A stretch of 63,834 nt of DNA, counting the filler, from Reclinomonas americana ATCC 50394 (Eukaryota), in NCBI GenBank assembly GCA_048213135.1. It is 23 parts of 23 records of this genome, joined end to end, with 100 filler letters (N's around TTAATTAATTAA, not from the genome) between each part and the next. Parts side by side here need not be neighbours in the genome. Positions count along the whole stretch, not along the records: positions 1 to 3,763 come from AFZH01024636.1; 22 more parts are not named here. One strand, given 5' to 3'. Of the stretch, positions 1 through 37,056 are shown piece by piece; positions within the stretch are counted from its first letter, which is position 1; each line of letters opens with the position of its first letter. Position numbers and translations under genes: made by a program. The notes below the pieces were generated by a model. The model had not been told where the DNA came from. It saw only the letters and a program-made list of their open reading frames with translations, and ran no database searches.

Positions 1-1764
1 ATGCATTGCGTGAGATGGTACCCTTGGCGACTCGACAGAAAGAGCACGCACGATGTTCATCAGTGTGCTCCACACTGACTCGTAGCAATTCCAGCATGCA
101 GTGCCGCAACGCCTCTTGCCTCGCATACGATGCACTCTTGTTGGATTTTGGAGTGCTCACCGCCTGCCGACATGTGGGCACACAGGGGATAAGGGGGAGG
201 ACTGACGGATCACAAGCAACGACAAACCAGTCCCGACAACGAGAAGCCGTTTCGTGCGAGCGCCTCTGGTCGCATCACCGCCGTCTCGCTCCCACGCACT
301 GTACCTTGTCGCTGGTGCATTGCTTCCAGTTCCGAGGCACTGCACGGCAGATCCCGCGGGGGTGAGATGGCCTGTCAGAGAAATGGACAGCGGCAATCAT
401 AGTGCGCAACACTTGAGAGAGCGGAAAGTGCTCGGCGGCATTCGACTGCTTCAGCAAGTCCTCTGTACGTGTACGCGCAGTCATCAGTGTACAACGAAAA
501 ACACGTGATCTCATGCTCGGTGGCAGCGCACCGCTAATGTCGTGAATCTGACGACGTGCGACTGCATCCACTTGCAGCACGTTCCACAGCGTGTACATTT
601 GCGGCGATCGTAGTCGGCGAATTCTGTGCGTGCGTAAGCCGATTAGGCGACCAATCGCACACAACACCCCCGTTGGCGAATCAAACGCAACAGCGACGAC
701 TGTTGCTGGCGGAGTCGCGTGAGTTGGAGTGGCGGCACTGGGGACAACTTGCGAGCTGCGCACCCGACACACTCACATTCAGCCTCACGCATCAGCGCTC
801 ACTCGCCCAACACAAAAAACGCAACATCGCGCAGGCATCGCCCACTGCGGTGACACTGGCTCCGTCGGCCCGCTTCGCGCACCCGTCATCGACGACACGT
901 CCATCAACAGCGCCTCCTCGCGCAACGCCGAAGCCGCCGCCGACGCTGCAGCCTCCGCCGGCGTCTCCAGCACCACTGTACGCTCCAGCTTCTTCCTCTT
1001 CTCCACCTGCAGCGCGGTCGCGTTGGCCTGGCACTCGATCACTGGCCGAGAGGAACAATCGACGCACCTTATCCTCCTGCCTCACCAACGCCGATCGCAA
1101 CGTCTGCAGCTCCGACTGCACCGTCAATCGCTCAAACACAGCCGCCTGCTTGCTCTCCTGTGTCAACAAGCTGCGCCACACACGTAAGCAGGCCACCACA
1201 GCAGCGATCCTCCACCATGAAATGGACGCAACGCGATCTTCTCCGCGACCAGCTCCGGCTCACTGACCAGCATCAGTCCGCCTCCACTCGGCCCCGGACT
1301 GAGGTCCTCCGAGGCCGCCAGCATGGCTCTGATCGACGCACGTCGCGAAGTCGACATGCGCTTTCCTCCTCGCTGCGTGCTCCCCGACGACGCAGAGGTC
1401 GATCGTTGTGACGAGAGAGGCGCAGGTGGAGGTGGAGGCGGAGGAGCTAAAGGATGTGCGTTGGCAGAGGGCGCTCGCTTATGTGATGCCGACTGTTGAT
1501 CGCCGACGAGAACGCGGAAACCTCCACCAGCGACCTGTGTGAAAGAGAGTGAGAGTCAGTCACCGATGGAATCGGTGTCGTTGTCACTCTTTCTCTCTCT
1601 CTCGCACACACCAGTCGGTCTTTCCTCACGTTCAACCCCGACCCTCGCGCTGATCGCATGGTCGTCAGAGGAGACGGAGGATCGTCGGTGGACGCAGCAG
1701 CAGCAGCAGCCGTGTCGCCGCCATGAGAGAGACGCAGATTGAGCGTGCTCGGTCCCACCGACAT
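1..1764 (-). CDS. Multi-exon eukaryotic hypothetical protein with a coiled-coil-like segment (3' partial; exon structure approximate)
   Basis: ATG at 1764 (MSVGPSTLNLR...). Protein-like frame segments (ESKQAAVFERLTVQSELQTLRSALVRQEDK; VEKRKKLERTVVLE) are separated by short GT..AG pyrimidine-rich intron-like gaps. No family recognised. Confidence 0.35.
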
Positions 1765-1952
1765 CTCTTGTCTCTCTCTCTCTCTCTGTCTGCCTCTGTC
1801 TCTGGCACACTCAGCGAGTGACGCACAACTGGGTTACGCTCGCCTCGAACACGGATGAGAGTGAAAAGTCGGCCAACGCAAAAATTAACTGGCCACCAAT
1901 CGGTGACCGTTGGCGCATGTGGCACTCGTTTTGATTGCAATCGTCTTTTCAT

Positions 1953-3763
1953 TTATCGCTGCTGCTGCATAAGAGCATGAAACATGGCACGCTGCTCTTG
2001 CAGCTCGCGTCGATAGGCTTCGAGTAGAGCGCGCTGGTCGCGAAGTTCCGCAGCTTGTGCCTCCAGCTGCTCCTGTTGCTCCTTGACGGCTTGTACGAGA
2101 ACGGCAGTGAGGTGAGCGTAGTCGACGGTTTCGTACTGCGCATTCGGCGAGCGGCCGACCAGTTCGGGGAACACGGCGGCGACTTCGTGGGCGAGAAGGC
2201 CGATCTCGCGACGATTGGCGGACAGTCCGCGCAGCTGCATGCCGGTGGAGTTCCACTCGTAGGTGACGGGGTTGAGAAGACGCAGGCTGTCGACGGCCCG
2301 CGATGGACGGCTGCTCGTGTCGGCTTGCGCCAGAGGCCGGATGTTCTGTTTGAGGCGTACGTCGGAGAGCGCCGTGCCGAGATCGATCGGGAACAACGTG
2401 CCGCTGCTGGAGCGCCAGAACGGTTGTCCACTCAACGCATACAACCACGACATATTGGCGGTGGCGGAGACGGCTGGATGACTCGCCACCTCTGTGATGC
2501 CGATCAGGTTGTCTTGCATGTGGATCTGCACGTTGCCGTGGATGGACAGCTCAAGTGCGTCGGCCAGGCCCACCACTGGATAGAGTCATGCGCGATGAGT
2601 GACAACGAAGGGCAAAAAATAAGCACACTCGAGCACAAACCAGTGGCAAAGAGACCCGAGTCGCCAAACGTGTCAAAGGCGTAGCCCACGTTGGAGACGC
2701 TGCCAGCCGTGGGTGAACCCGAGGCCGCTCGGTAGCCGCCCGTGTTGTGTACTTGTGCTGCAGGCGAGGCAATGCCGATGCCAAGGAACCAGCCGGCGCC
2801 GCCGGCATTGGTCAACGTCTGTGTGCACATGAGAGAACGAAGGAGACCAGGGGAGAAAATGGAGAGAAAAACAAACACACCATGCCGGTGGCAGTATCGG
2901 CCAAGTGCAGCGTGTCAAAGGTGGCGAGCGGTTGCATGGAACCCAGCAGGATCTTGGTGCCCGACTGGCTGAGCATGGGATTGCCGTTGAAAGAGAGTGT
3001 TGGGTCGGCGCCGCCCGTCGTCACCATGTCCAACAGCGCAGTCAGTGTCGCCACCGAGTTCGCCGACGGTCGCAGTCGCAGTCGGTCCACACCCCCCAAC
3101 ATCACCGACAGCTCACTCGACATGCCGCCCGTCGAGAACAGTCCCGTGCTCCCATCGTCGTCAAACGCATAGCCAATGTCCGTCAGCGGCGGCTCACCCA
3201 CTTTGGCTCGAATGCCGCCACGCACTTGCAGCTTGGTCGCCGGCGCCGATTCACCAATGCCCACTTGACCGGCGTCGGTAACAATCTGTGTGCAGAAGTG
3301 AGTGAAAAACAACGGCGGCAGCACCAGCAGCAACGGCACCACAAACAAACCAATCGATTGCTGGCGCGGAACACCACATCGGCAAAGTCCGTGCCCAGAA
3401 TGAGCGTCGTGCCACCACCATCCGTCGTCACATACGTCTTGCTGTTCATGCGCAAGGGCGAGTTCGACACATTCAGCGAGCCCGTCAACACGATCTCGCC
3501 AGTGCTGCTGTTCGGCACTGCAATGCGTGGAGTACCCGCCACCGAGAGCGTCAGATCGGGAGTGACCGCTGCAATATCGCACGAAAAGTGAGTCGCCAAG
3601 AGCACGTGATACGACAGCTGTGGAAACAATACCATTGCAAAACACTCCCGTATCGGCGGTGCTGTCGAATGAGAAACCGACATTGGATGAGGCACCCGAG
3701 GTCGCGCCGCGTGCCGCACGAACGCCGCCAGCCACATGCAGTTTGGCAACAGGTGACGTAGTT
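1953..3763 (-). CDS. 3' part of an intron-containing tail-fibre-like repeat protein with C-terminal Peptidase_S74 (intramolecular chaperone autoprocessing) domain and coiled coil
   Basis: Last exon encodes LSDVRLKQNI...LNPVTYEWN...IGLLAHEVAAVFPELV...VDYAHLTAVLVQAVKEQQEQLE, the S74 signature (Ser codon 2364-2366, Lys codon 2349-2351). Upstream exons carry three modules (TTSPVAKLHVAGG, VGIGESAPATKLQVRGG, LGIGIASPAAQVHNTGG). GT-AG introns of about 60 nt lie near 2577-2640, 2820-2880, 3286-3350 and 3570-3631. Confidence 0.88.
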
Positions 3764-3863: not shown

Positions 3864-4489
3864 ATCGAAAAATGCATGTGCCCGAGCATGTGAAGGTAAC
3901 CACCCATCGCCTGCACTCTGTCGAGACTTGCGCCCCGACAGCGCAAATGATAGTACCCTGTCTGATCTGGCGTCAACACATCCAACGCAGCCGCGGAGAC
4001 AGAACACCCACCTCCACATCACAGACAGCAAACGTGAATAACTCACGGCCGTACTGTGGCGCAGAGGGAGCTGTGCAAGGCTCTGCTCCAAACGGACTGC
4101 GCGGAGCGAAGAACATATTCTCCGAGCAGTAACTACGAATCCCAGTGACTCAAAATAACACTGGGGACTCGACTTTTAGCCACTCGGGTGAGGGAGAAAA
4201 GAATGAAGTACAAGAGAGAGAGAAAGAAAGAGAGAAGAGAAGGAGGAGAAGGAGGGATGGGTGGAGGGAAGAGAGAGAAAGAAACAGAAATGAAAGTGTC
4301 TTGTGACGAAGTGCAGCAACACTACAGATAAGTCGTGTTGAAGTTTGGACCAAACAATCACTCAAAAAGAGACAAGAGCAAATGCAGCTACTTGTCGTCT
4401 CTCACCACCGTGTACCCGATAAAAACAAGAGGACAGGTAGATAGATCAAAGACAGCAGGCAACAGTCGAGATATCCCGAGGAAACGAAA

Positions 4490-7158
4490 TTACCTGCAAA
4501 CGAATCACCCAGTGCCGCAATGCACAAGTGCTCGTCCTTGCCAGTGCCCGACCACTTGGCCGTCACATTCAGCTGCGGCATGTCCAGCCATGAGTGGCGG
4601 AAGTCCACGCCATCGGACGCTGCGAGCAAAATAGAGTGAGCAACATTGCCCAGCGCCGCCGCGGCCGCCAAGCACACGTTTGACATACCCAGAAGCTCTT
4701 CAGTGGCCGAGGCGTACAACTGCAACGCCATCTCGGCCTGATTGCGGCCAATGATCTCGGCGCTCTTGTACCTGCAGTGCAAGCACGTGAGCACGAGTAC
4801 AATCGACACCCGAACCAACCAATCAACAACCGGCACGCAACTGATCAGGGTATCCCGGTCCGCGAGCCACACACAACTCCGTCTTGCCGCCGCACGTGGA
4901 CGTGATGCGGTCGCACGGCGTGTTGTCGGGGCAGAATGCGCCTATTTCTCACACAAGTCAGTCACTGGCGCGCGGCACGAGCAAGGGCGCACGACGCACG
5001 CACCCAGTGTGTTTGGCGTCACATCACCGGCATTGGCTTGCACAAAGGCGGCGACGAACGCGCCAGTGCCAGGGAGTGAACCGGGGTTCTTGATCTCTTC
5101 CACGATTTGCGACGCGATGCCCTTGTTGTCGCCCGAGACGTACTGCGCGAGAGAAATCGAAACAGTTGGAGAAATCGATGTGTGAGGAAACGAGGTGCAG
5201 TGAAAGATGATGAGGCAAGGACAAGCACGGAAGCGGGGGTGACATCCAACCAAACGAACCCTATTCTTGTTGCCAATGGCCGTTCCGTGCTGCGCGAACA
5301 AACACAGTTGCTCGTCAGGCACACAAACCAGAGAGAGACAGCCGAGTCGCAGACACTACTGATGCTCACCACTGCAAACCACGTAATCATGCCGCGGTCG
5401 CTGCCGTCCATACCGACAATCTTGATCACGGTAATGTCCTTGTCCGTGTCGCCGTCGGGGTACTGAGCGCGCTCCGACTCCGGGTTGAGCAAGTACGACG
5501 TGGCTGAACGGCTGCGACGAATCGATCAGGAACTCAGAAAATAAACAGACAACAATGTCGGCAGGCGCCGCAACTTGGCGTTCGAGTTGTACAGCTTGCC
5601 CTGGTTGACGTAGACGCGCGACGGCTGCATGCTGTTGTGTGCAGCGTCGATACTGTGGCGTGAAGAGGTTAGGAGAGTGGAGTGAACGAACACATGAACA
5701 GACGTAAGCAGAGTAACACACGAGAGATGATAGTGTAGCGAGAGAGAGACAAGAGAGACAGCGCAGGAACAGATGAATGCCAAAAAATGAGCGAGATCGA
5801 GTCTTGAAACAGAGAGAGCAATCATGCACACATACGAATCTAGCACAGTGCGCGTGCCAGAGAACAGAGACACAATGTCACAATCATCTCCTTCCCAAAT
5901 CAAACCTAGCAAGAATACCGCCGACCACCGCCTCAAAGTTCTCCTTCGAGAAGCCAAGCGACGAAATCTGTTCAAAGCATTAGACACCACGTCCTCACTT
6001 TCTGTACACAATCACGAAAAGAACAGCCGCCGTCTCACGAAACGTCATACAAGGCGTAGTAGCTGTAGGCGCCTGGTCCGCTGTGGGTGTGCGTGCCCGT
6101 AATCATCACTGCGCGTGCAACGATGCACAGTGAGCACAACGGTTCACACGTGCCATGTCGTCACGCCGCACCATTGTCGTGCTTGTAGAGTGAGCCGTAC
6201 TTGGCTCGCAGCCTCTCAATGACCATGAGCTTCACCGATTGCATGGTCATGCAAGAATCTGCACGTCAGACAGCGTGACACGGCAGTGAGCACGTGAGAA
6301 GCAACAAGAAGCAGGACCACTCGCACGTCGCACGACGTACCGAGATTCACCACGACCACGCGTTGGCCATTGGCCTCGAAAATGTACGAGCGCGCGCGCT
6401 GTGCGGAGAATCTTTAGTCTCTCGGATCATGGTCGCCCGAAACACGTGTGACGGGGAGAAGGAGAGGAAGAGAGAGAGGGGGAATGCACGCACGCACCAG
6501 ACGCAGGTTCAAACCCTCGGCAATCTGCTCCAGCATGGCGTCTGCGCCACAGCAAATACACTTGTGAGTGACCGGGATTTCCCGCCACTCGTCATTCAGT
6601 AAACGACGCAACATCCCATCATCTCGACGCCTTGCACGGGGCCTGTGCATGCAGCAGAACAAGGCGTGTGAGAGAGGGAGAGGGAGAGAGGAAGAGAGGG
6701 AAAGGCGGAGAATAATTGCTCGAATCGCGCGGGGGAATTCACACTCTCACTCACTCTCTCTCTCTCGCACAAACACACAGATGTGCGTGCGTAGTGTGTG
6801 GCACTCACCGGTGATGTCATAGGTGCCAATCTGCGCACGACGACACGAAGAAAAAAAGAAAAGTGAGCGGGGGTCAGCGCACATCGACATGAACAACAAC
6901 CCTTTCCGCACAACACCACACCACGAATCATCTCTTCGCACATAACTCGCGCGCATTCACAGGCACTCTGACACACTCGACACGCACACACGCACACACA
7001 CACACGAGTACGAGAGGAGCGTGAAACGCAACTCCGACATTAAAGTTGGACGACTGCTCAGTGTGGAAGTGCTGCTCCTCGTTCGCCGAGGCCAGCAGCG
7101 CGGTGGCGACAACAGTGCACACCAGTACGCACAAAAGTGCACTGAGAGAGGCTCGCAT
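4490..7158 (-). CDS. Neutral/alkaline ceramidase, multi-exon, with signal peptide (3' end not resolved)
   Basis: N-terminus MRASLSALLCVLVCTVVATALLASA. Exon motifs IGTYDITG, PVQGVEMMG, ERAQYPDGDTDKDIT, GMITWFAV/HGT, VSGDNKGIAS, FVAAFVQANAGDVTPN, IIGRNQ, VDFRHSWLDM and CIAALGDSFAG match the Ceramidase_alk family. Many short GT-AG introns. Confidence 0.9.
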
Positions 7159-7720
7159 GGCGCGCCACGCAAACTAAACAACAAACTTGATTTCCGTCCA
7201 TCCGTCTGACCGCCGGATGAACTCTTTGGCAGCTGAAGCGAGAACCAGCAGAACCGGAACAAACAGCTGTCTCAATGATCAAGCCTGCCCATGTTCAAAC
7301 ACCGTTCTTGAATGCAGCAGCCGTACTTTTTCTCTGCTTGTGTTCGAATTCGCGATCGACGTCGACCAGCTGCAGTCGGCAACGGAACTGCAACCTGCAG
7401 CGAAGCACGGAAGTGAGCAGCTGTAGAGTACGCAGAGTTGCGGAGAAGCCCACGACTTTATGCGGTCGTTTGTGCCTCATCCAGTAAATTGCTGACCAAT
7501 GAAATGCGAAAACCGGAACCGAACTCAGTTGCATTGCCGCGCTTTTCCCTATGTCGATTTCTCTTCCCAGCGCCTCCTGCAATATTTTTTCATCCCTGTT
7601 GGGAACTTGACACCAACAACNNNNNNNNNNNNNNNNNNNNNNNNNNNNNNNNNNNNNNNNNNNNTTAATTAATTAANNNNNNNNNNNNNNNNNNNNNNNN
7701 NNNNNNNNNNNNNNNNNNNN

Positions 7721-9305
7721 GAGAACTGGTTGCTGGCGCAGATCTGCAGGTTGACCGAGGTGCCAGCCGGCAGGCCAGTCACGTCAATGTAGTAGGTCGA
7801 CAGGTTGTTGTTCCACGACGCCGCAGTACCGCTGCCGTTGGTGGACGGGAACGAGCTGGTGTCAATGTTGACGGCAGAGCCGGCAGTGGCAGCTGTCACC
7901 GACGAGGCGCTGGTGCACCGGCGGTGTAGTACACCACACGGTAGGCGCTCACGTTCGGGGTCGGGGTCGTCACGTTGCCCTGAGTGGCGCTCGAGGTGGC
8001 AGTGTTGGAGCCGCCGACGCTGATTGGGGTCGAGAAGTTCAGGCGCACGCCAGTCGAGAGTGCCACACCAGCTGCAGTGGGCGCAGCCGGCACGGAGCCG
8101 TTGTTGTCGGTGATGGCCTGGATCGAGCCGGCCGCCGAGGCAGCGGTGTTGTTGTTGACTGTCACCTTGATCTTGGTCGTGTACTGCATGGCCGCCACAA
8201 AGTTGGTGCTGGCGTTGTTCATCGTGAAGCCGGTGATCTGCTGGTAGAAGCCAGAGTTGTACGGGAACAGGCCGTAGAACGACGTGGCGAGCGTGCCAGA
8301 GCCAGTCGCGCCGGTGGTGATGGCAGGCTGGTCAGTGCTGCCATTGGTCACCGTGTAGGCGGCAGTCGGCGCAGCGGTAGTGTCGCCAGTGCCAAAGGTG
8401 GCCGGGTAGTTGAAGGCGACGACAAACGACGTCGAAGTGACCTGATCCACAGAGCCAGTGTACGGAGCCACAGTGTAGCCAGTCGGCGTGGCCGGCGCAC
8501 CGGACGCCAGAGTCACCGTCACGGCAGTCGAGAACGTCAGGCTGGCACCGTTGGCACCCGGAGTGCCGCGCGCTGCCGTTATTGTAGGCCGCCGTCAGGC
8601 AAGTTACCTCGACGAGCACGCGGTTGCGCGACGTGCCAGCGCTGCCGGTCGGGATGCCAAAGTCGGTCAGGTCGGAAATGGTGGTGACCAGTCACTGCAC
8701 CGCCGCCGCAGTCCGACTTGACGTACCACGTGGCAGCGCCAATCATGCCCGGCCCACATGGCCGCCGCACCCTCCCACTCCACCGCCGGTTGCTGTTGGC
8801 GTCGGTGGTGAGGCCCGAAGCGACAGAGACACCGCACACGTTGGCAGTGCCGGTGGCAGTGTAGATGTACAAGCTGGCAGCAGACGAGGCGTTGACGGTG
8901 CCTCCCACAGCTGTGTACGTGGCCTGAATGGCGGTCAAGGTGACGACAAAGGTCAGCGAATTGTTGGTGATGTCGATGATGGTGACCGATCGAGCTGGCA
9001 GCGGTGAGGGTGGCACCGGCGCCAGCAAAGGCGGGCGCGGCAGTTCCCCGGGATCCAGCCGCGGTAGTAGCGGGCCCATCGACAGAGTGGAGGCGTTCCA
9101 AAGCCACCGCTACCACTGGTGATGGCGGCAGTAAGGTTGGCCACACAGTTGACAATGGTGCTGGCACAGCGCCCACGGACCTGCAGCCCACAACACATTC
9201 ACGCGCGCGATTGCCGGCAGTAAGAGTGATTTCCAGTTGCGAAGCAGTGTCGAGCGCAGCAGTGCCGTTGCCAGCGTCGTTCTGCGCAGTCACGCGATGC
9301 GACAT
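7721..9305 (-). pseudogene. Frameshifted paralog of the FN3-repeat Ser/Thr-rich surface protein at 11518-15146
   Basis: 7721-8780 aligns by eye to about 13873-14940 (e.g. TVTLASGAPATPTGYTVAPYTGSVDQVTSTSFVVAFNYPATFGTGDT is identical). Several small indels break the frame (about 7916-7923, 8566-8570, 8590-8780). An FN3-like end motif RVTAQNDAGNG lies near 9270-9297. Confidence 0.65.
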
Positions 9306-9359
9306 GTGGTGATCGCGCCACCATTCGATCCGGTCCTGCACCACTGTGCAAGTGAGGAT

Positions 9360-10960
9360 TACGCAGCACAACGGGAGTGCTCCATTTCATCACACTCACC
9401 ATGGCACCACCAGCAGTGTAGCTGGCGAATAACCGCAGCAGCCTCCTGCGCCTCAGGGCCGTCGGCTGAGTGGAACAGCAGGTCGGCTACCACCCACAAC
9501 TTCCGGCCATTGATCTCCGCCACAAAGCCATTCCGAAGCCGATTCATCGAAATGGTGAGCTGTTTGTATGCTGACATGTTGCTCGTCTCTGCAAGACCAT
9601 TCTCGAGCATGAGCACCTCGCGATCGAGGGTATAGATGGCTCATGACTAGCCGCTTATGCGCACCTGGCGGCGTGAGACCAACGCACGGGAAGTAGCGGG
9701 ATTTTCCAGAGCGCAGCTCATTGGCCGGCCGATTGACAATCGCCAGGTGCAATGCACCTGTTGGTCGCTGCGCGCGTGTGCTCAGTGACTCTGCATCAGC
9801 GTGACAACGAAAACAGTCAGTGCACGCATGCTGCTGGCAACAAACAAAGTCCACAGCACTCACCCTTGAAGTCATCATAGTCTGTCTTTACAAACAATAC
9901 CACCACTTCGTCAGCGCCGGCCTCTGTTGCCCTGACCTCCATCGTGTCATCATACTGCAATCAAGACAGTCTCTCTCTTAGTCTAACAACTGCGAAATGA
10001 GCAGCCGAGAACAACAGCAGCCTACCGTCAGTGAGACACCACTGTCAGTGCCGCGAATCTGATCGTCGGTGCATTGCACAAAGGCCATCTTGCCGCCGGC
10101 AACAACAGTTGTCGGAATGACGCACAGCAATTGGGTACTGCGTGGACGACCGGCGGAAAGCATTTCCACGTCGCTCCATCGGAACACGGGACTGGAAACT
10201 CGTCCGAGCACTGTCCCGGGATTGAGTGTGACTTCCACAACAGCCGCCGTTGACGGATGTCTCGGCCACACCAAGAGGCAAGCAAAGCGCTGAGCCACAT
10301 CTGCTGCTGTTTCACCCCAAACGCTGACATTTTTCTGAGAGCAATGCTTGTCAGCGCTACTGCAGGAGACAACAATCAAACATGAATTGGCGCAACTGAG
10401 GGATACGGATGGCTGTCAAACAACCACAATTGCACCACAGTTCGTTTGACTCCGTTGGGCCCCACCTGCCACATGCGCAAGAGTACACGTTGGCAACACG
10501 ACATACATGCCAGCACAAACGACAGTGGATGATGATCAATAACTCAACGAATTCAGCACCTTGGCAATCACGTCTGCGCCATTGACAACAGCGCTAGCGC
10601 ACACAAAAGAGTTCTTCCAGAGAGCGACGCGCTTGCCGTTCCCGAGGGTCGCATACGTGACAAGAGCATGCATCTCGAGCTCTTTCGTCTTCACTCGCGC
10701 CCCTGTCATGGGCCCGCGACGAATAACGCTGCCGGGTGTCTGTGGAGGTGCGGCGGTCGTTGGTCACGGGGAGCGGAAGACACACACGCAGGGCTCATCG
10801 TAAACACACAATACCTTGCCAACAACATGCAAGTGCACGTGACGAGGTGTGAGACTATCCAGTGCACGTGTACCAGGCAATGGCCTGGTTGCTCGTTGAA
10901 ACGCTTCACGCTCTCCAGATACTCCGACGCCGCCAGCTCATGGGCTCGACTTGCAAGACC
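9360..10960 (-). other. Fragmented Cys-rich coding-like region, possibly a DNA-transposon relic
   Basis: Short frames with Cys clusters (CSCHVC, CRLCWHVC...CACG...CNCGC, CCQQHACTDCFRCH) and a helical segment (EVLMLENGLAETSNMSAYKQLTISMNRLRNG). No catalytic motif recognised. Confidence 0.2.
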
Positions 10961-11517
10961 CTAGTTTTCTCACACGCTCTCCTGTCACTCACGCACAGCC
11001 GTGCACTCATGGAACCGGAAACACACACAGAGAGAGAGAGAGAGTGAGTGAGAAATGAGTGCGTATATCTCGTCCCAGCTCCCTGCAGAGTTGCCGCTGT
11101 GGATGTGAGTTAAATGTGCCGGTCAATGCGTGTGTGTGTGTCAATCTGAACTGGCAGAGGGCAGAAAAGGCGGGAGTGCTCGCATTTCCTTTCTAAGCAG
11201 TTTCCTTTTTTGTAGAGGAGAACCTGACTGACTGTAAGCGGCCAGCATGTAGTGGACATTGACGGGCCTGTTTGTGTTGGGTATATGTGTACGGGATTGG
11301 AGTGTACAGAGATCCAGAAAGGGGGTCCGATCTGGAAATCAATCTGCGCATGCATGCAGAGGAGGCGAGGGGCTTGTACGCAGCAACTGGGGACATTGTC
11401 GTGCAGAGCATCTGAGANNNNNNNNNNNNNNNNNNNNNNNNNNNNNNNNNNNNNNNNNNNNTTAATTAATTAANNNNNNNNNNNNNNNNNNNNNNNNNNN
11501 NNNNNNNNNNNNNNNNN

Positions 11518-14500
11518 CGTCACACTGCCGCCAAGCAGTGCACCAATAGTGGTCACAATGCCGCCGCTGTTCAAGCCGCCAGAGCTCGCCAACCGCCTTG
11601 CAGCGAACCCACAGTCGTCACACTGCGGTAGCGCGACGACGGCTTGATCGTCTGGAACAGCTGCACGCAAGTGCCGGCAACGGCCGGGTTGGTGCCGCTG
11701 CCGAGCACAGCAGTGTTCATGCCCAGGCCGTCAGCGGCGGCCGGGTTGCCAGTCGACGCCAGGAAGCGGGTCGTCCACTGCCAGAACACCAGGTAGTAGG
11801 TGGCGGCCGCAGTCGTGCCCGAGCCCACCGCAGTCCACGACACGCGGTACTCGTTGGCGGCGTAGAAGTCCAGCGACGGGGTGCCAGCAGCCGGCACAAT
11901 GCCAGTCGTGGTCACCGGCGACGCCTGAATGTAGATCGACAGCGAGTTGTTGCCCGTGCCAATCGAGTTGGTCGCGTTGAGGAAGAAGCGGTAGAAGTTG
12001 CCGTTCACCACCGTCACAGACGCCGTGGTGTCGGTGGCACCCAACGCGACACTCGGGCTTGTAGTCGTAGCCGACGCACCAGTCAGCGACTGGCCAGAGA
12101 TGGTAGTCGACGCACCAGTGGCAGTCGTCCACGAGAACGCAATCGCCGTGCCAGTGTTGCTGGTCACCGCAAAGTTGGTCTGGTCGTTCGGCACCTGGCC
12201 CGTCAGCACGTTGTTGTTGAGGCCGTTGCCGATGATGCCGTCGCCGAAGGTGGCCTGAGTGGTCGACGTGCCAATGCCGTTGATGCCGCGCACATCGATG
12301 AAGTAGTTGGTGGCGTTAGTGAGGCCGCGAATCACAGCCTGCTGCACCGAGGTGGTGTTCTGGGTCAGCGTGCTGGCCGTAGCCGCGCGCCACGACACCT
12401 GCCACTTGGTCACAAAGCCCTGGCCGCCAGTCTCCTGCGGCTGTCCCCAGCTGAGCCAGATCGAGGTCGAACGCTTGAGCAAAAGGTTCGACGACAGCGA
12501 CGTGATGCCGCCCGGGCGCTGCGGCGACGTGGCCGTGGTGATGGTGATGGCCGTCGCAGACCAGGCAGTCTGGTAGCCGTTGAACGACGCCACGCCAATG
12601 CGGTACTTGGTGTTGGAGGTCAGGCCATTCACCAGCAGCGTCGTGGTGGTCGAGCCGAGCGAGCCAGTGATCATGAACTGAGTCACAAACGAGTCCGGCA
12701 CGAAAGTGGTCGAGGTGACGTTGGTCAGGTTCTGCACCAGCACCTGCACGCCGACATAGTTGTTGAAGCCGTCCGACGTGGTCAGCGAGTACTGCGTGCC
12801 GATCACCGTCGACGGGGTCGACAGTGTAAAGGTGGCGTAGCCGGAGCCAGTCGTGCCAGCCGAGCCGCCAGTGGTCAGAGCCGGCAGCGGGTACGGGCGC
12901 ACAATCGAGTTGGCAATCTGCGACAGAGTGCCCGACTGAGCACCGCTCTGCGTCGAGGTCACACCAGAGTCCGAGCGGGTGTTGGTGGCCTGCACGGCGT
13001 AGGTGTACGACTTGCCCGGAATGGTCGGGAAGTTGAAGTTGGTGGTCAGCGTCGTCCACGTGTACGTGCGGTTGCAGTTGTTGGTGTTCTGCGTCACAAT
13101 GTAGCCGTTGATCGAGGTGCCACCAATGCCAATCGGCGATGCCCACGAGATGCTGGTGATGGTGTCCTGGTAGCAGTTGCCAGAGAAGCCCACACCGAGG
13201 GTACCAGCCACAGCAGCGCAGCCGGCGCTCGAGTTGGTGCCGTGCGAGTTCGCAATACCTCCAGTAAGCGTCGGGGCGTCGGGGGCGATCGGAGTATCGT
13301 CTGTGGTGGGAGAAGGGAGGCGGTGGATGAGATACTGATATTCAAAAAAGCACATGTCTCCCTGTCACGCTCTCTTTCTCTCTCCCACCCTCTCCCTCTC
13401 CATCAATCTCAACCCCCTTCCCCTTTCCCCTTCAACAACGCAACTGCTGTTGTGAGCGGTCTGAGTGATCGGACCAGCAGCAGTGGCCGAGTTGGTCGAC
13501 GTGGCAGTGGCGTACACCTGGTACGTATACGTGTACGACGTGTTGGCCGTCAGCGTAGTGTCGGCAGTGTAAGCGGCGGTGGTCGCCCAGCCAGCCGACA
13601 GGGTCACAGTGGCCACAGACACCGGGTCGCGCTGCCCTGGCCGCGGAAGATCGTGAACACCGTCACCGCGTTGGAGCCAAAGTTCTGCGGAATCGTCCAC
13701 TGCAGGAAGATGTTGGTGAGGCCGTACTGCGTCACGACCAGGCTGGTCGGCGGGTTCGGAACGACACCGGTGGCAGCCGGAGTGGTGAAGTTGACAGACG
13801 AGCTGAACACACACGACACCGGGTTGGCGACAGTGCCAGCCGGGTTGAAGGGCGACGTCGGGAAGGCGATCGAGAACTGGTTGCTGGCGCGCACCTGCAC
13901 GTTGACCGAGGTGCCAGCCGGCAGGCCAGTCACGTCAATGTAGTAGGTCGACAGGTTGTTGTTCCACGACGCCGCAGCGCCAGTGCCGTTGGTGGACGGG
14001 ATGGAGCTGGTGTCAATGTTGACAGCAGAGCCGGCAGTGGCCGCAGTCACCGACGAGGCGCTGGTGGTGTAGTACACCACACGGTAGGCGCTCAAGTTCG
14101 GAGTCGGAGTCGTCAGGTTGCTCTGCGTGGCGCTCGAGGTGGCAGTGTTGGAGCCGCCGACGCTGATCGGGGTCGAGAAGTTGAGGCGCACGCCAGTCGA
14201 GAACAGGCGCGAGTACGCCACACCAGTGGGCGCAGCCGGCACCGCACCGTTGTTGTCGGCGGTGGCCTGGACGGAGCCGGCCGCCGAGGCAGTAGTGTTG
14301 TTGTTCACAGTGAACTTGGCCTTGACCGTGTACTGCGTGGCAGCCACAAAGTTGTTGGCGGTGCCGCTCACAGTGAAGCCGGTAATCTGCTGGTAGAAGC
14401 CAGAGGTGTACGAGAACAGGCCGTAGAACGAGGTGGTGAGCAAGCCAGAGCCAGTCGCGCCGGTGGTGATGGCAGGCTGGTCAGAGCTGGCGTTGGTCAC

Positions 14501-15146
14501 CGTGTAGGCGGCGGTCGGCGCAGCGCCAGTGTCGCCCGTGCCAAAGGTGGCCGGGTAGTTGAAGGCGACGACAAACGACGTCGAAGTGACCTGGTCCACA
14601 GAGCCAGTGTACGGGGCCACAGTGTAGCCTGTCGGCGTGGCCGGCGCACCCGACGCCAGGGTCACCGTCACGGGTCAGGTTGTCACCGTTGGCACCCGGA
14701 GTGCCGCTGCCGTTGTTGTAGGTCGTCGAGATGGCGCAGCTGGTGCCAGTCAGACCAGTGACCATGACGAGCACGCGGTTGCGCGACAGACCAGAGCTGC
14801 CGGCCGGAATGCCAAAGTCGGTCAGGTCGGCAATGCTGGTGACTACCGTCACCGCACCGCTGCCGCAGTCCGACTCGACGTACCACGACGGAGCACCGCC
14901 AATCACACCCACGTTGGCCGCCACACCCTCCCACTCCACCCACGTTGAGGTCGACGTAATGTAGCGCAGAGTGGACGACAGCGTCGGCGCCGCAGTCGAA
15001 ACCTTGGTGGCATCCGAGCCGCTGGTGGTCAGAGTGCCGCTCCAGGCCGCAGCCGAGCGGTTCACCTGCGACTCAGTCCACACATTGATGGTGCAGCCCT
15101 GGCCAGTGGTGGCGTTGGTGGCCAGAGTCACACCGCGCCACGTGCT
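11518..15146 (-). CDS. Large multi-fibronectin-type-III, Thr/Ser/Gly/Ala-rich extracellular protein (partial at both ends; two frameshifts; one intron at about 13303-13440)
   Basis: Repeated FN3 motifs: PNPPTSLVV..LQWTIPQNFG, PDAPTL..ISWASP..INGYIV..YTYAVQATN, GLTSNTKYRIGVASFNG, LSWGQPQETGG..GLTNATNYFIDVRGINGIG. Frame changes at about 13625 and 14672. Confidence 0.8.
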
Positions 15147-15246: not shown

Positions 15247-16880
15247 CCCACGCCCACCAGGCCACCGGATACCCACTGCACAATAGATGCGAATGAGCTC
15301 TACATGCGATAAAAACATACACACGCGCGATGCTACATACCAAGTTGCCACTCAAGATGGACACCGCTTGCACGGCGTCGCCCACAAACAGCGTCGATGG
15401 CGCGCCGAGTACCACACGCAACGACTGCAGTCCGTTGAGAGAGAGCGTGTCGGTGGAGAGTTGAAGGGGATAAAGGGTGCCGGTGCTGGAGCGCCAGAAT
15501 GGTAGTCCTCCCACAGCGTACAACCACGACATGCCGGCAGTGGCCGTGGACGCCGGCTGGCTGGCCAGCTCAGCAATGCCAATCAAATTGTTTTGCAGCA
15601 CCAGCCGCTGCGAGCCGGTTACCAGGAACTGGAGCGTGGTGCCTACAGCCCATTGTCAGCGAAAGAGGAGAGTGCAGACACAGCAAGCGGCGACGAACCA
15701 GTGGAAAAGAAGCCAGTGTCGCCGTCTGCATCGAATGCGTAGCCAACGTTGGAGGCGGAACCTGCCGGTGCACCGGTCGCTGCACGGTAGCCGCCAGTGT
15801 TGTGCACGCGCGCGGCAGGCGTGGCGGTCCCGATACCGAGATACCACCCGTCGACGCCAAACGATTGCATGACCTGTGAGCACCGCGAGCATGAAATTTT
15901 CGTGCCAGCTCAGCGTGTCGCCAGATCTCTCACTCATCACGCACCACTCCCGCTGTGGTGCTACCAAACGAGATGAGCGAAACGTTGCTCGTTGCCACAT
16001 TGAGCGACGCTGTCGGCGCCGAGCCAGATACCGCGAGGAGGGCCATGCCAGCCATGGACAGCTGGGAACCCTGCACGGTGAGTACGCCGGCCACCGTGAC
16101 ACCCGACGCATCGCCGGCCACGGTCAACAGCGATGTGCCGAGGACCGCTAGCTGCAGACTTGGAGGGCTGGCAGTGGTGGCAAAGAAACCCGTTGTTGGC
16201 ATATCCGTGAACGCATAGCCGGTGTTGGCGACCGTTCCTGGTTGCACCACCGCACCGCCGGCCACATGGAACGCCGCAAACGGATTCGCGATTGATCCTA
16301 CCATCAGAGTCGTCCCCAGCGACATGGTGTCGTACTTCAGCAGCTGTGTGAATAACAGACAGAGAGAGGTGTTCACGGTGAGCGGGAAAATCGTCTCTTG
16401 CGCAATCGACTTGGTGAGTGCGCGCACCATCTTGCCTCCCAGGAACGACATGATGGGGTACGCAGTCGGTGGACTGTCGGCGAATCCAACAGTCACTGTC
16501 TGGCCCGAGGCGGCGAGAATGGGACTGGTGGAGAAGAACGACAATGTCGAGCCCGTGATTTGCAACTTGTCGGCTCGCATCAGTGCCGAATCCGTGTCCA
16601 GCGCAGGAAGCGACAGACGCGTAGACGCGCCGATGCTCAACTGCAACTTGGATTGCGCTGCAAGGCCAACGAGTGAGCAATTGCCGTACTTCAAGGCAGT
16701 CTCGTTTCTACGCCCGTGCACTCACCAGTGTCGAAGAACAAGCCAGTTCCGTTGGCGTCAAACGCAAAGCCGGCATCCACACCGACCGCCACGGCGCCGC
16801 CGGCGGCGATAATACCGCCGTTTGTGTGCAGCGAGACTGCCGGGCTGGCCACGTTGATGCCGACGCGGGATTGTTGCAGT
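15247..16880 (-). CDS. Middle part of the intron-containing tail-fibre-like repeat protein
   Basis: Modules RVGINVASPAVSLHTNGG, MVGSIANPFAAFHVAGG, YLGIGTATPAARVHNTGG and WVSGGLVGVG. The first three are followed by a GF/YAF..D..TG(L/F)F motif; the last runs off the contig end. Exons are separated by short GT-AG introns. Confidence 0.8.
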
Positions 16881-17109
16881 CGCTGTGAGGCGCAGATAGG
16901 TCAGTACATGATGTCGTTCACACACGCAAGGCATGCACGCGTGACGCACCAGAGTTTTGCCAGNNNNNNNNNNNNNNNNNNNNNNNNNNNNNNNNNNNNN
17001 NNNNNNNTTAATTAATTAANNNNNNNNNNNNNNNNNNNNNNNNNNNNNNNNNNNNNNNNNNNNTGTCGCACGCGGCTGTCGTGCAGTAGAGGTGAATGAA
17101 TCCCCACAG

Positions 17110-18926
17110 CGTGGAGTCCGCAATGTCCGTGACGGTGGCCAAACTGACGGCGCGCTTGTCGGTGCCCAGCAGCAGCGTGTTGCCAGTCGACGCCAGCGAG
17201 CCGGCGTAGATGGTCGGCGACGACGATGCTGCAGACGATAGGCGCAACCGCTCCGATCCATCAATCATCAGCACCAAGCTGTTGGTGACGTTATCTGCAA
17301 AGAGGGGGAGTGTCAGCCGCGCACACGCACAGACATAGATCCTCTCGCGATGAATGCCGTACCGACATAGAGTCCCGTCTGATCGGAAAAGCCAAAGCCA
17401 ACATCAAATGCAGCTGGAGTAGGCAATCCAGACGCAACACGCACACCGCCATTGGCGTGCAACTTGACGGCCGGCGACGTGAGATCGACGCCGAGATTGC
17501 CGTCCGCACGCGAGTACTGCGATCGTGGGGAGGTGAGGAGGAGACGCACCGCTGTTTTTAGCGCACAGAATGACAGAACGCAACGAGGTGAGGAAACACC
17601 ATATCCATTGCGGCGAATCCACTGCCGAACAGCAACTTGCTGCCCGACGTTTGCAGCACAGAGAGGCCGTTGAAGGTCAACACGGGGTCGGCGCCGCCCG
17701 TCGTCACCATGTCCAACAGCGCAGTCAGTGTCGCCACCGAGTTCGCCGACGGTCGCAGTCGCAGTCGGTCCGCACCCCCCAGCATCACAGACAGCTCGCT
17801 CGACATGCCGCCCGTCGAGAACAGTCCCGTGCTCCCATCGTCGTCGAACGCATAGCCAATGTCCGTCAGCGGCGGCTCACCGACTTTGGCTCGAATGCCA
17901 CCACGCACTTGCAGCTTGGTCGCCGGCGCCGATTCACCAATGCCCACTTGACCGGCGTTGGTAACAATCTGCGTGCAGAAGTGAGTGAGAACCACGGCAG
18001 CAGCACCAGCAGCAACGGTACCACAAACAAACCAATCGATTGCTGGCGCGGAACACCACATCGGCAAAGTCCGTGCCCATAATGAGCGTCGTGCCACCAC
18101 CATCCGTCGTCACATACGTCTTGCTGTTCATGCGCAAGGGCGAGTTTGACACATTCAGCGAGCCCGTCAACACAATCTCCCCAGTGCTGCTGTTCGGCAC
18201 TGCGATGCGTGGAGTACCCGCCACCGAGAGCGTCAGATCGGGAGTGACCGCTGCAATATCGCACGAAAAGTGAGTCGCCAAGAGCACGTGATACGACAGC
18301 TGTGGAAACAATACCATTGCAAAACACTCCCGTATCGGCGGCGCTGTCGAATGAGAAACCGACATTGGATGAGGCGCCCGCGGTCGTGCCGCGTGCCGCA
18401 CGAACGCCGCCAGCCACATGCAGAGTCGCCGCTGGCGCCACCGTGCCGACACCCACGAGGCCACCAGATACCCACTATACCAAGATCGAAACGAAGAGTG
18501 AGTAAATGGAAATTATGGATCCATTGCTATCGACACCACCCGCACCATGCTTCCGCTCAAAACCGACACGGCGCCAAAGTCGTCGCCAACAAAGAGGGTG
18601 GACGGCAATCCAACAACTCCACGCAACGATCGCAGTCCACCGAGGGCCAATGTGCTGCCACTGACCGCCAGCGACCCGGTGATTGTGACCGACGAGGAAA
18701 TGTCAGCGGGCAACGTGAGACGCGCCACATCGCCGGCGATGATTTGCACACTGACAGGACCACTGGAGGTGCTGTAGATACCAGTGTCGTCGGCAAAGCT
18801 GAAGCCTGTATTCCGTGACGAGGCACTCGTCAGGCCCTGTTTGGCGCGAATACCGCCGCTGACATCCAGCTGCACGAGGGGAGTGCCTTGGTTGATGCCC
18901 ACGTAGCCGCTCGCCTTGGACAGCAC
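17110..18926 (-). CDS. Upstream part of the intron-containing tail-fibre-like repeat protein (5' partial)
   Basis: Modules GYVGINQGTPLVQLDVSGGIRA, LVGVGTVAPAATLHVAGGVRA, QVGIGESAPATKLQVRGGIRA and NLGVDLTSPAVKLHANGGVRV, with GT-AG introns. 17686-18422 is near-identical to 3002-3740. Confidence 0.8.
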
Positions 18927-19791
18927 CTGCGACGAGAGCGTTGANNNNNNNNNNNNNNNNNNNNNNNNNNNNNNNNNNNNNNNNNNNNTTAATTAATTAA
19001 NNNNNNNNNNNNNNNNNNNNNNNNNNNNNNNNNNNNNNNNNNNNAGTCACGTTGTATGATGCCCATAGACGACAGAGAAGCGACAGCGATGAAGACGCCC
19101 CGTATGGAGTGCATGTTCTTCCGACTGTTTCGCAAGCACACGCCGTGCGCTCGCATGCCGTCAGGCATGGCGAGGCACGGAGATGTGCGTGTATTGAGGG
19201 GTTGTGGGGACCGCGGCGTCGGCCTCAGAGAAGAGCATGGGAGAAACAACCCTCTGATTATGTGTTGGAGATTGCCAGGATCGCTGCGGCTTGTAGTTTT
19301 AGTGGCGATCGGGAATGAAGGGCTGGCTGTGGATGTGGTACATGTTGTGAGAAGTGCAGGGCATTCTGTTCGCCGTCTTTGGACGGCATAGGTGTTGTTA
19401 AGAAGAGTGTGTGGGAGTGCTGTTTTTCTTTTCTGTCGGTGTGGTATGTGGCTTTATCTAGGAACGTTGATGGGGCCGGGAGCTCGGGTGATCGGAGCTC
19501 AGTAGATGCCCATGCGCTGTGAGCGCGAGTAGCAATGACCGCGGGTTTGAACCCGGGAGCGGCGTAGAACACATGATAGTGGATGTGTAGATATCGAAGA
19601 TTCTTTTCACCTTGTCGCCAAGGCGACAGAAGTGGTGTCAAGTGGGCACACGCTTGCGTGTGAGGGCACTTGTTTATCATGAGGAACCGCCTACGTGCGT
19701 ACTCGTAACCGTGATCGTTGGCACTGTGTGCCCATGAGGGGAGAACGGAATATCGATGGGTGATCGGAGTTATTTGGAGGATATGCCTGTT

Positions 19792-19875: not shown

Positions 19876-20496
19876 GAGGCATACTGCCTTGGTCGCTATG
19901 CGCGAGAAACAGGATCGATAATTGGAGATTCGAAAGTGGAATCTTTTTCTAAGCTGAGGATCGGCGTTTCGGTTGTGGGGGTCGTTGCAAGGAGCGTGGG
20001 AAACGTCTCGCACCGGATTTTATCCGATGAGCACCCTCTTTGGGGTCGGAAAGACGGAAGAGGAAGAGAACCCAAAAATGGTCAATTCGAACCGGTTCGA
20101 ATTCGGTTCTATAAAGGTGGAGACCAACGATGAGTGATTCACTGCACTCTTTTTCTGCTCGGGGGGAGCACGTAACGTCGTCTCTCTATTACGTGAGTTT
20201 TCTTTCGCACTAGCGGTGTGCGTGTGACGTCGTTATTCGTCTGCGTGAGAAGTGGGACACATGCATATGTCAACTGACATGCATGTGATCATTCCCCTCT
20301 CCTCTCTCTCGCCCCCTAGATCGTCGTTGAACGTGTCGGTGAACGCGTCATTGTGGAGGAAGGAAGCTCGTTTGTGAGCACNNNNNNNNNNNNNNNNNNN
20401 NNNNNNNNNNNNNNNNNNNNNNNNNTTAATTAATTAANNNNNNNNNNNNNNNNNNNNNNNNNNNNNNNNNNNNNNNNNNNNCTGAGCACGTGCATT

Positions 20497-21810
20497 ATGG
20501 TCGCCAGTATGCTGACCGAGGGCCTACCCCGCGTTACAGTTGAACGCCAGATGGAGGCAGGGAGGCCGACACCACCGCCACCCCCACCGCCGCCGGCTCC
20601 TCCGGCGGTGCGTACGACCACGCAACCGGTCGGTACGGTTGGGCGGGGACAGAGCGTCACCCCGCGTGGCGCAGCACCTGTGCAGGCGAGGCCGGCCACG
20701 GCCAACCGCGGAGCACAACAATTGGCGGCGGCGGGTGGTCGAGGGGTCGGCGCCGGAGCGCAGCAGCATGGGGTGGCATACACAGTGCCGACACCCGTCC
20801 CTCACGCCAGACAGGAGTCAGCGGCCGCGCCGGTCGTCAATCGTGACCGGAGGGTGGATGCAGGCCACGCTGGCGGACAGATGGTGTACGTGGAGGACGA
20901 CGAGGAATGGGCGGAGGCCTATCAGGAGCCCATGTCCGCCCGCGCTTTCACGGAGGCGCTGGAGTTGCAGCGACTGCGGCGCGACAACGACACACTCCGC
21001 GAGTCGGTGGTCGACATGCGGAAGATGATGGAGCGTCTGGTGAAGGGACAGAAGTCTCTAAGCGAACGCCTGCGGGCGTCAGAGGCGGAGCGCGCCCAGC
21101 CAGTGGCTGGCCCAGAGGCGCAGGGGGCGGTCGCTCCAGCCGCCGCAGTGCAGCAGCAGCCGAGAGCGCCGCCCGCTCCAGCGGCCGCAGTGCAGCAGCA
21201 ACAGCAGCAGGGGGTGGCGGCGGGTTCTGCCGCAGCACAACCTGGCGAACCCGGTGTGGGGGCGGCGGCGCCCGCAGCAGCACCTGTGGTTGGAGTCGTG
21301 GCAGCGGCGGTGGTGCTACCGCCGACGGTGGAGGGCATGTTGGCCGCCGTCGGTGAGCCGGTGAACATAGACGCGGTGAAGAAGACCTTGCGAGAATTGT
21401 GCGCGCACGGGAGACTGTTTGCAGCGAGACTGCCTTTCGACGTGGCGGAGCAGGAGGCCGCAGCGGCGTCAATGGTGGACCTGCCGGTCACACGGGCCGA
21501 GAACCTCTTTGTCGAGGGAGCAGCAGAGCTCATTTCCCTTTCCCTGCCGACGAGCGCCGACTGGGCTGCTGCCAGAGTCGCCCATGATCGACAGCCTCTG
21601 GGACACTCACGCCTCGCCTTGGACCGCCTGGTCTACGACTTCATGAAGTCGCGCCGCGACATTGTGCGCGACGCGGGGTTGGCTATGATGAGCGACCAGG
21701 CGACTGGCGTTGGGCGAGGGTGGCCGGACACAGTCGAATTGGAGGTGAGGGCCTACGAAATGGCCGTGCACACCGACCAGCTCGTGACCACGAGGTCCCA
21801 GGCGGTACAA
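20497..21810 (+). CDS. Intronless Pro/Ala/Gln-rich protein with coiled coil, possibly a retroelement gag-like ORF (partial)
   Basis: Open across the whole contig with no introns, unlike most host genes here. Coiled coil FTEALELQRLRRDNDTLRESVVDMRKMMERL. Composition and layout resemble the gag ORF at 42320. Confidence 0.45.
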
Positions 21811-36267: not shown

Positions 36268-37056
36268 GTAGACCCCGTGCACACGGTAGTACTGCTTGAT
36301 GAACCCGCGATTGCGCATGATGTAGTAGCGATACGCGTTGCTCGACGCGTTCATGTGGCGGATGCCCATGTCCCACTGCTTGATCTCGCGCGTGCGCCGC
36401 AGGACGAACTCGTCCACGATGACGGCGGTGGTCCGGCGCGAGGCGAGCCACCCGTACATCTGGTCATCCCAGTAGATGAAGAACCTCGGGTCGGGGAGGC
36501 CGATCTGCGCGACGATCGAGCGGTGGATGAACATGCCCTCGAAGCATCCGCTGTTCATCTCCTTGAATCCGGAGTGGTCGAATCCGGACGGCGCGAACGG
36601 GATCGGGATCCCCATGCGCTCCGCGATGCGGTACTGCCAGTAGAACTCGCTGCCGTCGTAGTCGATGCGGCGGCCCTGGATGCTCTTGAACCGCGGTGCC
36701 CACTTGCCCATCTTCGCGAGGCCGTCGGTGAGGACCTCGACGTCGTCGTCCATCATCCAGATCCACTCGGAGCCGAGCTCGTACGCGGTGCGCATGCCTT
36801 CGCTGAATCCGCCGGACCCGCCGGTGTTCGTCTCCAGGCGGCGGTAGACGATCTCGGTGCCGATGCCCTCGCGGAACGACTCGACGACGGCGGTGGTGTC
36901 GTCGGCGGACGCGTTGTCGATGATCACGACATGGCCGGGCTTCGGGTCCATCGCGGTGATGCTCGTGAGCAGGCCCGAGAGCAGGTGAGAGCGGTTGAAG
37001 GTGACGATGACGATCGTCGCGGCCGTGGGGTCGAATGCAGCGGGCGCCGCGGTCAT
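36268..37056 (-). CDS. GT2 glycosyltransferase, galactofuranosyltransferase GlfT1-like (3' partial)
   Basis: IVTFNRS..IIDNASAD..NTGGSGGF..WIWMMDDD..CFEGMF..IGLPDPRFFIYWDD; ATGA overlap with the upstream gene. Confidence 0.85.

Follow-up and report, generated by a model that had tools for sequence, protein, structure and literature searches.

A predicted spliced, modular fibre gene with a terminal S74 chaperone domain in a genome assembly of Reclinomonas americana

Introduction

ICA (intramolecular chaperone auto-processing), a domain also called the S74 chaperone, is a characteristic mark of the fibres of phages and bacteria. To our knowledge, ICA in eukaryotic cells works only in transcription factors of the MYRF type. 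The subject of this report is a gene that appears to place an intact S74 domain at the end of a long modular fibre protein and to be interrupted by many short introns. The gene was found in a window of 63,834 bases from Reclinomonas americana ATCC 50394 (assembly GCA_048213135.1), which consists of 23 short contigs (1.1–3.8 kb each) joined by N44-TTAATTAATTAA-N44 spacers and in which contig 1 occupies positions 1–3763. The reading that we consider probable is that of a horizontally acquired family of trimeric fibre genes, residing in the nuclear genome of the protist that also bears the spliced ceramidase and aminopeptidase genes of the window, expanded by duplication of exon pairs and serving an extracellular adhesive role.

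Fibres of comparable design have been described from the predatory bacterium Bdellovibrio bacteriovorus. According to the accessible text of PMC10769870, the mosaic adhesive trimer (MAT) fibres of this species are trimeric beta-helices with capping loops of the form V-G-G/N-x-x-x-P-x-x-x-L and have a role in prey handling; 13 of the 21 members end in an S74 domain, the cleavage of which was demonstrated. The gene reported here resembles members of the S74 subgroup as described there (e.g., Bd3182), which are proteins of about 1,000 aa with repeated segments that carry the capping-loop motif and with a terminal S74 domain that contains SDxxxK. It differs in that MAT genes, in the same description, are uninterrupted and bacterial, whereas 15 introns of spliceosomal type were placed on the fibre contigs of the window. 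[quoted passage not shown]

Phage fibres such as the K1F endosialidase (3gw6), the GA-1 neck appendage (3gud), the T5 L-shaped fibre (4uw8) and T4-like gp37 share with the protein a terminal ICA fold, a Ser-Lys dyad and, as far as the model goes, a trimer with a coiled coil. A weak sequence match to a phage long tail fibre tip (6f45, E 0.03) was also noted. The gene is unlike those of phage fibres in its spliceosomal-type introns and protist-like codon usage, and the structural alignments with phage fibres were at 12–33% identity only.

Fibres of polinton-like viruses and virophages in protist genomes are, in the accessible text of PMC12220804, likewise large modular proteins with a single C-terminal chaperone-of-endosialidase domain. 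The repeats described for them (laminin_G_3, collagen, adenovirus-fibre, phage-tail-repeat and BppL_N) were not found here by Pfam, and the main text of that article reports no spliceosomal introns in the fibre genes, although its supplements may list fibres of the VGIG type.

MYRF and Dictyostelium MrfA, in the descriptions available, resemble the present gene in being spliced eukaryotic genes with an ICA domain that follows a short beta-helical stalk. Unlike them, the fibre gene has no Ndt80-type DNA-binding domain upstream, where only fibre modules and no Pfam family besides S74 were found, and no transmembrane segment downstream, the ICA domain being terminal as in phage and bacterial fibres. 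A first-pass annotation of this DNA had contrasted the gene with MYRF and MrfA, where the domain is internal and followed by a membrane anchor, and the distinction was supported. A sequence search against MYRF chains gave no match at E up to 1.

Results

Structure of the fibre gene

The minus-strand coding signal of contig 1, made up of ORF pieces in three frames, switches frame four times, and every switch was bridged by a GT..AG interval. Removal of these four introns (64, 65, 62 and 65 nt) gave a single 517-codon frame from 3762 with no internal stop (Table 1). The gene had been placed at 1953–3763 in the first-pass annotation but was not confined to this interval, as it continued upstream, by way of an in-register junction described below, on the contig at 15247–16963. 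Ten modules and the 9-residue start of another were counted on three contigs (1–3763, 15247–16963 and 17064–18944), in agreement with the earlier count of at least ten. Modules were 116–159 aa long, with about 130 aa being typical, rather than 90–110 aa as first stated. The description of them as repeated VGIG-type units stood, each opening with a VGIG...P...L loop motif; the VGIG core was degenerate in some modules, yet a recognisable loop motif still opened all ten.

Introns fell at recurrent places of the protein repeat. Over the three contigs, 15 GT-AG introns of 56–84 nt were located, 14 of which had lengths not divisible by three, and these occupied just two positions in the module. Thus, nine lay at the module boundary, a few residues before VGIG, and were all in phase 0, while the other six lay directly after TGxF, in six of the ten modules, and were all in phase 1. 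Introns in register with a protein repeat imply that the repeat expanded inside a splicing genome.

A module profile made from four single-exon modules matched only four entries of the PDB, all of them MAT fibres of Bdellovibrio (8ond with E 3.2e-6, followed by 8ojn, 8on4 and 8oml), and the earlier description of the protein as built of fibre modules of a bacterial or viral kind was supported to that extent, the match covering only the loop motif of about 30 residues. Pfam assigned no family to the module-bearing frames. When the modules were compared by profile with two relatives from bacteria, only 27 columns over the loop motif aligned, at probabilities of 4–8%, and the AlphaFold2 (AF2) monomer model of one module had a predicted local distance difference test (pLDDT) value of 39.5 and was unusable.

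Evidence that the introns are genuine

Since GT and AG alone are weak evidence for an intron, independent signs were sought. For reference, six introns were located in the ceramidase and M1 aminopeptidase genes with the help of Pfam coordinates and of the catalytic motifs that splicing restored; they measured 62, 63, 66, 70, 227 and 791 nt. A CTCAC- or CTGAC-like branch motif, 10–30 nt before the acceptor, was present in four ceramidase introns and in most of the 15 fibre introns, and the splice signals of all 15 fibre introns were canonical. The GC content of fibre introns averaged 0.52 as opposed to 0.62 for the exons, and GC at third codon positions was 0.72–0.73 for the fibre gene compared with 0.72–0.78 for exons of ceramidase and URO-D. 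In trinucleotide composition, the three fibre contigs grouped with the eukaryotic contigs, far from the bacterial ones. The single indel (1 nt) between two 740-nt copies of 96.9% identity fell inside an intron, and all 1,457 modelled codons (517 + 430 + 510) were open. On the strength of these signs in the DNA, the splicing model of the fibre gene appears well supported. The first-pass annotation had described a spliced gene of eukaryotic type with introns like those of the ceramidase and aminopeptidase genes, and the likeness extended to both size and signals.

The S74 domain and C-terminal helix

Pfam PF13884 matched residues 74–143 of the last exon with E 2.1e-12 and 47.6 bits (cut-off, 22). 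The Ser-Lys dyad was intact, its residues being five apart (SDxxxK), and cleavage is predicted just before the Ser of SDVRLK. In a 46-sequence alignment of the gene with 45 relatives, the Asp and Arg of SDxRxK were invariant and the Ser and Lys were present in at least 90% of rows. The frame ends 137 residues past the Ser, and the tail that precedes the stop codon is one amphipathic helix. An intact terminal S74 domain had been claimed at the outset; the Pfam match, SDVRLK, the further motifs quoted for the domain and the terminal helix were all found.

The AF2 model of the last exon had a mean pLDDT of 79, with blocks from residue 101 on at 87–99. Foldseek matched this model to the MyRF ICA structure 7dc3 (E 1.3e-5, 23% identity), then to 3gud, 3gw6 and 4uw8, and the 374 structural matches at E <=0.001 in BFVD were mostly phage ICA tail fibres. 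The C-terminal helix is predicted from the models to form a three-stranded coiled coil. A homotrimer model, the check that the first-pass annotation had proposed, scored 0.93 as opposed to 0.34 for the best of three controls; among proteins solved as one-chain pairs, 21 of 30 attained the mark for such models, and among those solved as single chains, none of 23 did. Separate runs agreed in at least 93% of contacts, with partner pLDDT at or above 86. Contacts involved the pre-S74 stalk, the ICA core and the terminal helix, where they followed a 3-4 spacing along residues 156–205. This result indicates likeness to known trimers rather than proof of trimerisation, as trimeric ICA structures have been solved and the predictor may have drawn on them.

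Upstream continuation and paralogous segment

Six introns were placed on contig 15247–16963, one of which has an upstream exon of just 14 nt. A candidate intron of this contig (16344–16427, 84 nt) is in frame and stop-free and could stay as 28 extra residues; it is the sole intron among the 15 whose removal is not needed for the frame and is ambiguous in this respect. On alignment to contig 17064–18944, the 3' end of contig 15247–16963 met the 5' end of contig 1 with neither gap nor overlap and with the frame kept (76 of 93 nt identical, ungapped). From this we infer that contig 15247–16963 and contig 1 are physically adjacent parts of one gene. The joined gene would have about 948 codons, ten or eleven introns, and seven modules followed by the S74 domain, and would still be open at its 5' end.

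Contig 17064–18944 represents either another member of the family or a part of the gene still further upstream. Outside the 740-nt block that it shares with contig 1, flanking sequences on both sides were unrelated at the DNA level. Intron 1 was identical in the two copies, and intron 2 differed by 5 substitutions and the sole indel of the block (1 nt). Among the 203 shared codons there were 11 synonymous and 6 non-synonymous differences (dN/dS 0.2; one-sided binomial p = 0.0015 against neutral proportions), and to judge from these counts the duplicated copies appear to be under purifying selection. The 3% divergence of the block does not by itself date the duplication because two contigs of the window, which are likely haplotypes, differ by 5% over 3.4 kb.

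A further observation concerns the third module of contig 15247–16963 (15643–15873), which is a paralogue of the S74-proximal module (2385–2818) at 73–76% DNA identity. Both modules share an extra insert of about 30 aa. The former leads into more fibre, not into S74, and the place that corresponds to SDxRxK keeps the Ser, not the Lys. This module is perhaps what remains of a terminal unit that became internal.

Relatives of the fibre gene

An exhaustive HMMER search of 1.84 billion representative proteins gave 18,126 matches at E 0.001; at 1e-10 there were 299, and at 1e-30 there were none. The top match (89 bits, 45% identity) was to the S74 part only. Five of the six best relatives, which were inspected, were VGIGT...S74 proteins, several with starts like signal peptides; five of the six matched essentially in the S74 part only and the sixth by way of a short pre-S74 stretch, with unrelated repeats. 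The ten best S74 relatives were all metagenomic singletons, one named 'hypothetical protein' and nine without a name. A word-based protein search returned 3 matches among 816 candidates of near length and 5 among 4,324 longer candidates, the best with 51% identity over half of the query.

Scans of nucleotide collections gave similarly distant relatives. Thus, 40 of 274 candidate stretches were confirmed in JGI metagenomes at 44% identity or less, and the nearest two of these 40 loci, when inspected, were uninterrupted prokaryote-type open reading frames (ORFs) of 313 and 776 aa. In GTDB genomes, 9 of 178 candidates were confirmed at 26–38% identity, in diverse bacterial metagenome-assembled genomes. 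A scan of IMG/VR with the S74 exon confirmed 8 of 37 candidate stretches at 27–34% identity in the S74 part only, a scan of the same collection with a module confirmed none of 6 candidates, and tblastn of the S74 exon against 50,697 phage records gave no match at E 1e-5. These comparisons place the gene in the S74 fibre class as a divergent member, without a close relative among the 1.84 billion representatives. Contig 11518–15146 of the window, to which tblastn gave E values of 0.3–0.4, was considered as a possible fibre relative and rejected, as it encodes an unrelated Ser/Thr-rich FN3 protein.

No report of a spliced S74 fibre gene other than MYRF in a protist was found in the open literature, a search whose scope stopped short of subscription journals and supplements. 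Among the matches listed for literature on PF13884 or Peptidase_S74, only the article on polinton-like viruses concerns eukaryotic genomes.

Other contents of the window

Contigs of the window formed a mixed set, some carrying eukaryotic genes split into short exons and others being bacterial (Table 1). The sample is a mixed culture or contaminated, given the bacterial contigs in the assembly. The Sel1-repeat contig at 32830–34976 had a GC content similar to that of the bacterial contigs and is possibly bacterial. Further contigs encoded WD40, URO-D, H-lectin, EGF and FN3 domains and a reverse transcriptase. No entry of the protein collection exceeded 54% identity to the URO-D exon, the top match being a jakobid entry (EukProt), so that the eukaryote has no close sequenced relative in this collection. 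In the window, tblastn with URO-D homologues located only the last URO-D exon. Contigs 29200–32729 and 59005–62372 were 95% identical over 3.4 kb in opposite orientation, both with EGF repeats and an H-type lectin domain besides that exon, and are likely to be either haplotypes or the products of a recent duplication.

A gene at 1–1360 (minus), which follows the fibre gene in the same orientation after a CT-rich spacer of about 600 nt, also looks spliced and encodes coiled-coil-like sequence of low complexity. An uninterrupted 597-codon frame at 11574–13364 (minus) is Ser/Thr-rich with one clear FN3 domain, and part of the contig that bears it is 86% identical to the neighbouring contig 7721–11417 (region 7721–8784); the frame may represent another surface-protein family of the same organism. 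At 43910–45661, a 584-codon frame with an RVT_1 reverse transcriptase reaches the contig end and indicates a retroelement in the same assembly. A single open frame of 443 codons (20482–21810), rich in Pro, Ala and Gln and with a GC content of 0.68, fills a contig of 1.3 kb and had no match in a family search. Rfam and tRNA scans of the whole window found nothing.

Table 1. Positions of the fibre gene, its parts and paralogous segment, and of other genes in the window
Feature	Position	Strand	Description
3' part of fibre gene	1953..3763	minus	Five exons and stop; 5' end cut by contig end
Exons of fibre gene, contig 1	3762-3633, 3568-3351, 3285-2881, 2818-2641, 2575-1956	minus	
Stop codon of fibre gene	1955-1953	minus	
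Intron 1	3569..3632	minus	64 nt, GT..AG, phase 1, after TGxF motif of module
Intron 2	3286..3350	minus	65 nt, GT..AG, phase 0, module boundary
Intron 3	2819..2880	minus	62 nt, GT..AG, phase 0, module boundary
Intron 4	2576..2640	minus	65 nt, GT..AG, phase 1, after TGxF of last module
Peptidase_S74 / intramolecular chaperone auto-processing domain	2157..2366	minus	PF13884
SDVRLK	2366-2349	minus	Ser codon 2366-2364, Lys codon 2351-2349; direct translation
C-terminal helix	1959..2120	minus	About 54 residues, AF2 residues 156-209, pLDDT 87-99
Upstream continuation of fibre gene	15247..16963	minus	430 codons; three modules plus the beginning of a fourth
Introns, contig 15247-16963	16949-16883, 16725-16658, 16427-16344, 15944-15874, 15698-15643, 15340-15276	minus	
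Paralogous fibre segment	17064..18944	minus	Four modules over 510 codons; both ends open
Introns, contig 17064-18944	18545-18475, 18314-18251, 18032-17969, 17599-17517, 17362-17295	minus	
Shared 740-nt block	3002..3741	minus	96.9% identical to 17685-18423, two introns included
Neutral ceramidase	3864-7620		Eukaryotic, short exons
M1 aminopeptidase	25564-29099 and 47376-49527		Eukaryotic, short exons
Opp-type permeases	35077-36167		Bacterial contig, GC about 0.67
Galactofuranosyltransferase-like genes (GT2/GlfT2-like)	36268-38491		Bacterial contig, GC about 0.67
BPD_transp permease	56726-58904		Bacterial contig, GC about 0.67

Discussion

A cellular owner of the fibre gene is favoured because of the host-level intron density, the introns in register with the repeat, the host-like codon usage and the absence of a viral hallmark from the window. 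Several points weigh on the other side. The first-pass annotation had taken the gene to be nuclear and domesticated by a protist, but a cellular owner does not follow from a nuclear gene: in the accessible text of PMC12768974, mirusviruses replicate in the nucleus and commonly have spliceosomal introns, and in that of PMC12220804, S74-terminated modular fibres are ubiquitous in polinton-like viruses integrated in protist genomes. Because such fibres have already been described, the suggestion of an undescribed system was also too strong. The 5' end of the fibre gene lies beyond the contigs, 15247–16963 and 17064–18944 both being open at their 5' ends, and the 1.95 kb of flank on contig 1 is all that is available, its spliced gene having no significant match in Pfam. 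Both the gene and its splicing are predictions from the genome sequence. Outside the loop motif of about 30 residues, the modules match nothing known in Pfam or profile comparisons, and a beta-helical fold of the modules is for this reason only presumed. Finally, since the assembly is mixed with bacterial contigs, assignment of the fibre and ceramidase contigs to the same organism depends on intron style and composition only.

The same findings can be read as those of a gene that belongs to a nuclear-replicating virus or a recent viral insertion (a polinton-like virus or virophage, a mirusvirus or a giant-virus insert), in which case the product would serve as a fibre for attachment of the virion and the host spliceosome would process the introns. 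We consider this unlikely, though it deserves serious attention. Mirusvirus genes with many GT-AG introns, with a length peak at about 80 bp and enriched among virion genes, are described in the accessible text of PMC12768974; the intron density of the fibre gene, 2.2–3.5 per kb, equals that of the ceramidase gene and exceeds the top genome-wide mirusvirus density given there, 0.65 per kb. For polinton-like viruses, the accessible text of PMC12220804 mentions only group I introns. A viral owner is suggested by language-model look-alikes of the module, which were unnamed viral clusters (score 0.94, a lead only), and by the Mimivirus 'chaperone of endosialidase' at rank 27 of the structural matches, but IMG/VR yielded no close relative, as seen from the few distant S74 matches and the unconfirmed module candidates. 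At least two near-identical copies of the 740-nt block are present, as multi-copy elements would give. Against this, no viral hallmark family was found among ORFs of at least 110 aa in the 23 contigs, which at 1.1–3.8 kb show hardly any of the gene's neighbourhood, or in the 1.95-kb flank, and the register of introns with the protein repeat implies that the gene has long resided in a genome that splices.

It seems improbable that the gene is what a horizontal transfer or viral insertion left behind, in decay and without function, i.e., an intron-invaded pseudogene that looks intact over the fragments at hand. Introns in endogenous giant-virus DNA have been taken as a sign of decay in literature cited by PMC12768974, as far as its accessible text goes. 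On the other hand, no stop interrupts any of the three spliced models (517, 430 and 510 codons), dN/dS between the duplicated blocks is 0.2, the S74 domain retains its catalytic Ser and Lys along with its other conserved positions, and all 15 introns have canonical splice signals. A bacterial or phage contaminant gene, with sequencing or assembly frameshifts mistaken for introns, might be suspected from the bacterial contigs in the window (35077–36167, 36268–38491 and 56726–58904), the bacterial records among the nearest S74 relatives and the two uninterrupted metagenome loci, but is so improbable as to be set aside, as it had been in the first-pass annotation, because the 15 interruptions of 56–84 nt are all GT..AG, mostly with branch-like motifs and at two fixed positions and phases, are lower in GC than the exons (0.52 vs 0.62) and lie on contigs unlike the bacterial ones in GC (0.67 for the latter) and trinucleotide make-up, and because the 50,697 phage records gave no match at E 1e-5.

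Under the reading of a horizontally acquired cellular fibre family, the gene would have come from a bacterium, a phage or a protist virus and would then have grown in place by duplication of exon pairs. Its product would be a long fibre, trimeric and beta-helical, of the phage tail-fibre or MAT kind, with modules of about 130 aa. If the protein behaves as do others of its family, the ICA domain and coiled-coil helix would bring three nascent chains into register, the beta-helical modules would zip up from the C-terminus, and the Ser-Lys dyad would then cut before the Ser of SDVRLK, freeing a chaperone of about 137 aa and leaving the mature fibre. By analogy with described fibres, the mature fibre is most likely an extracellular adhesin, either on the surface or secreted. 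We propose, tentatively, that a free-living protist uses S74-matured trimeric fibres of the phage or MAT type as ordinary intron-rich cellular genes, built by exon-pair duplication, and displays or secretes the products as adhesive filaments for a surface coat or for capture of prey or substrate.

The S74-terminated trimeric fibre is already known, also from protist genomes by way of their viruses; what is new is its intron-rich, exon-modular form. If the proposal is true, the gene would represent the first use of ICA by a cellular eukaryote other than in transcription factors of the MYRF type and would be a eukaryotic counterpart of the fibres by which Bdellovibrio recognises prey. Host-like exon-intron architecture on such a gene would demonstrate that attachment machinery of viruses or bacteria can be naturalised in a eukaryote. 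If a nuclear virus owns the gene instead, the finding would be of an intron-dense, exon-modular virion fibre and would bear on how receptor-binding proteins diversify in viruses of protists. Under either owner, the recurrent intron positions provide a clean case of repeat expansion by way of exon duplication.

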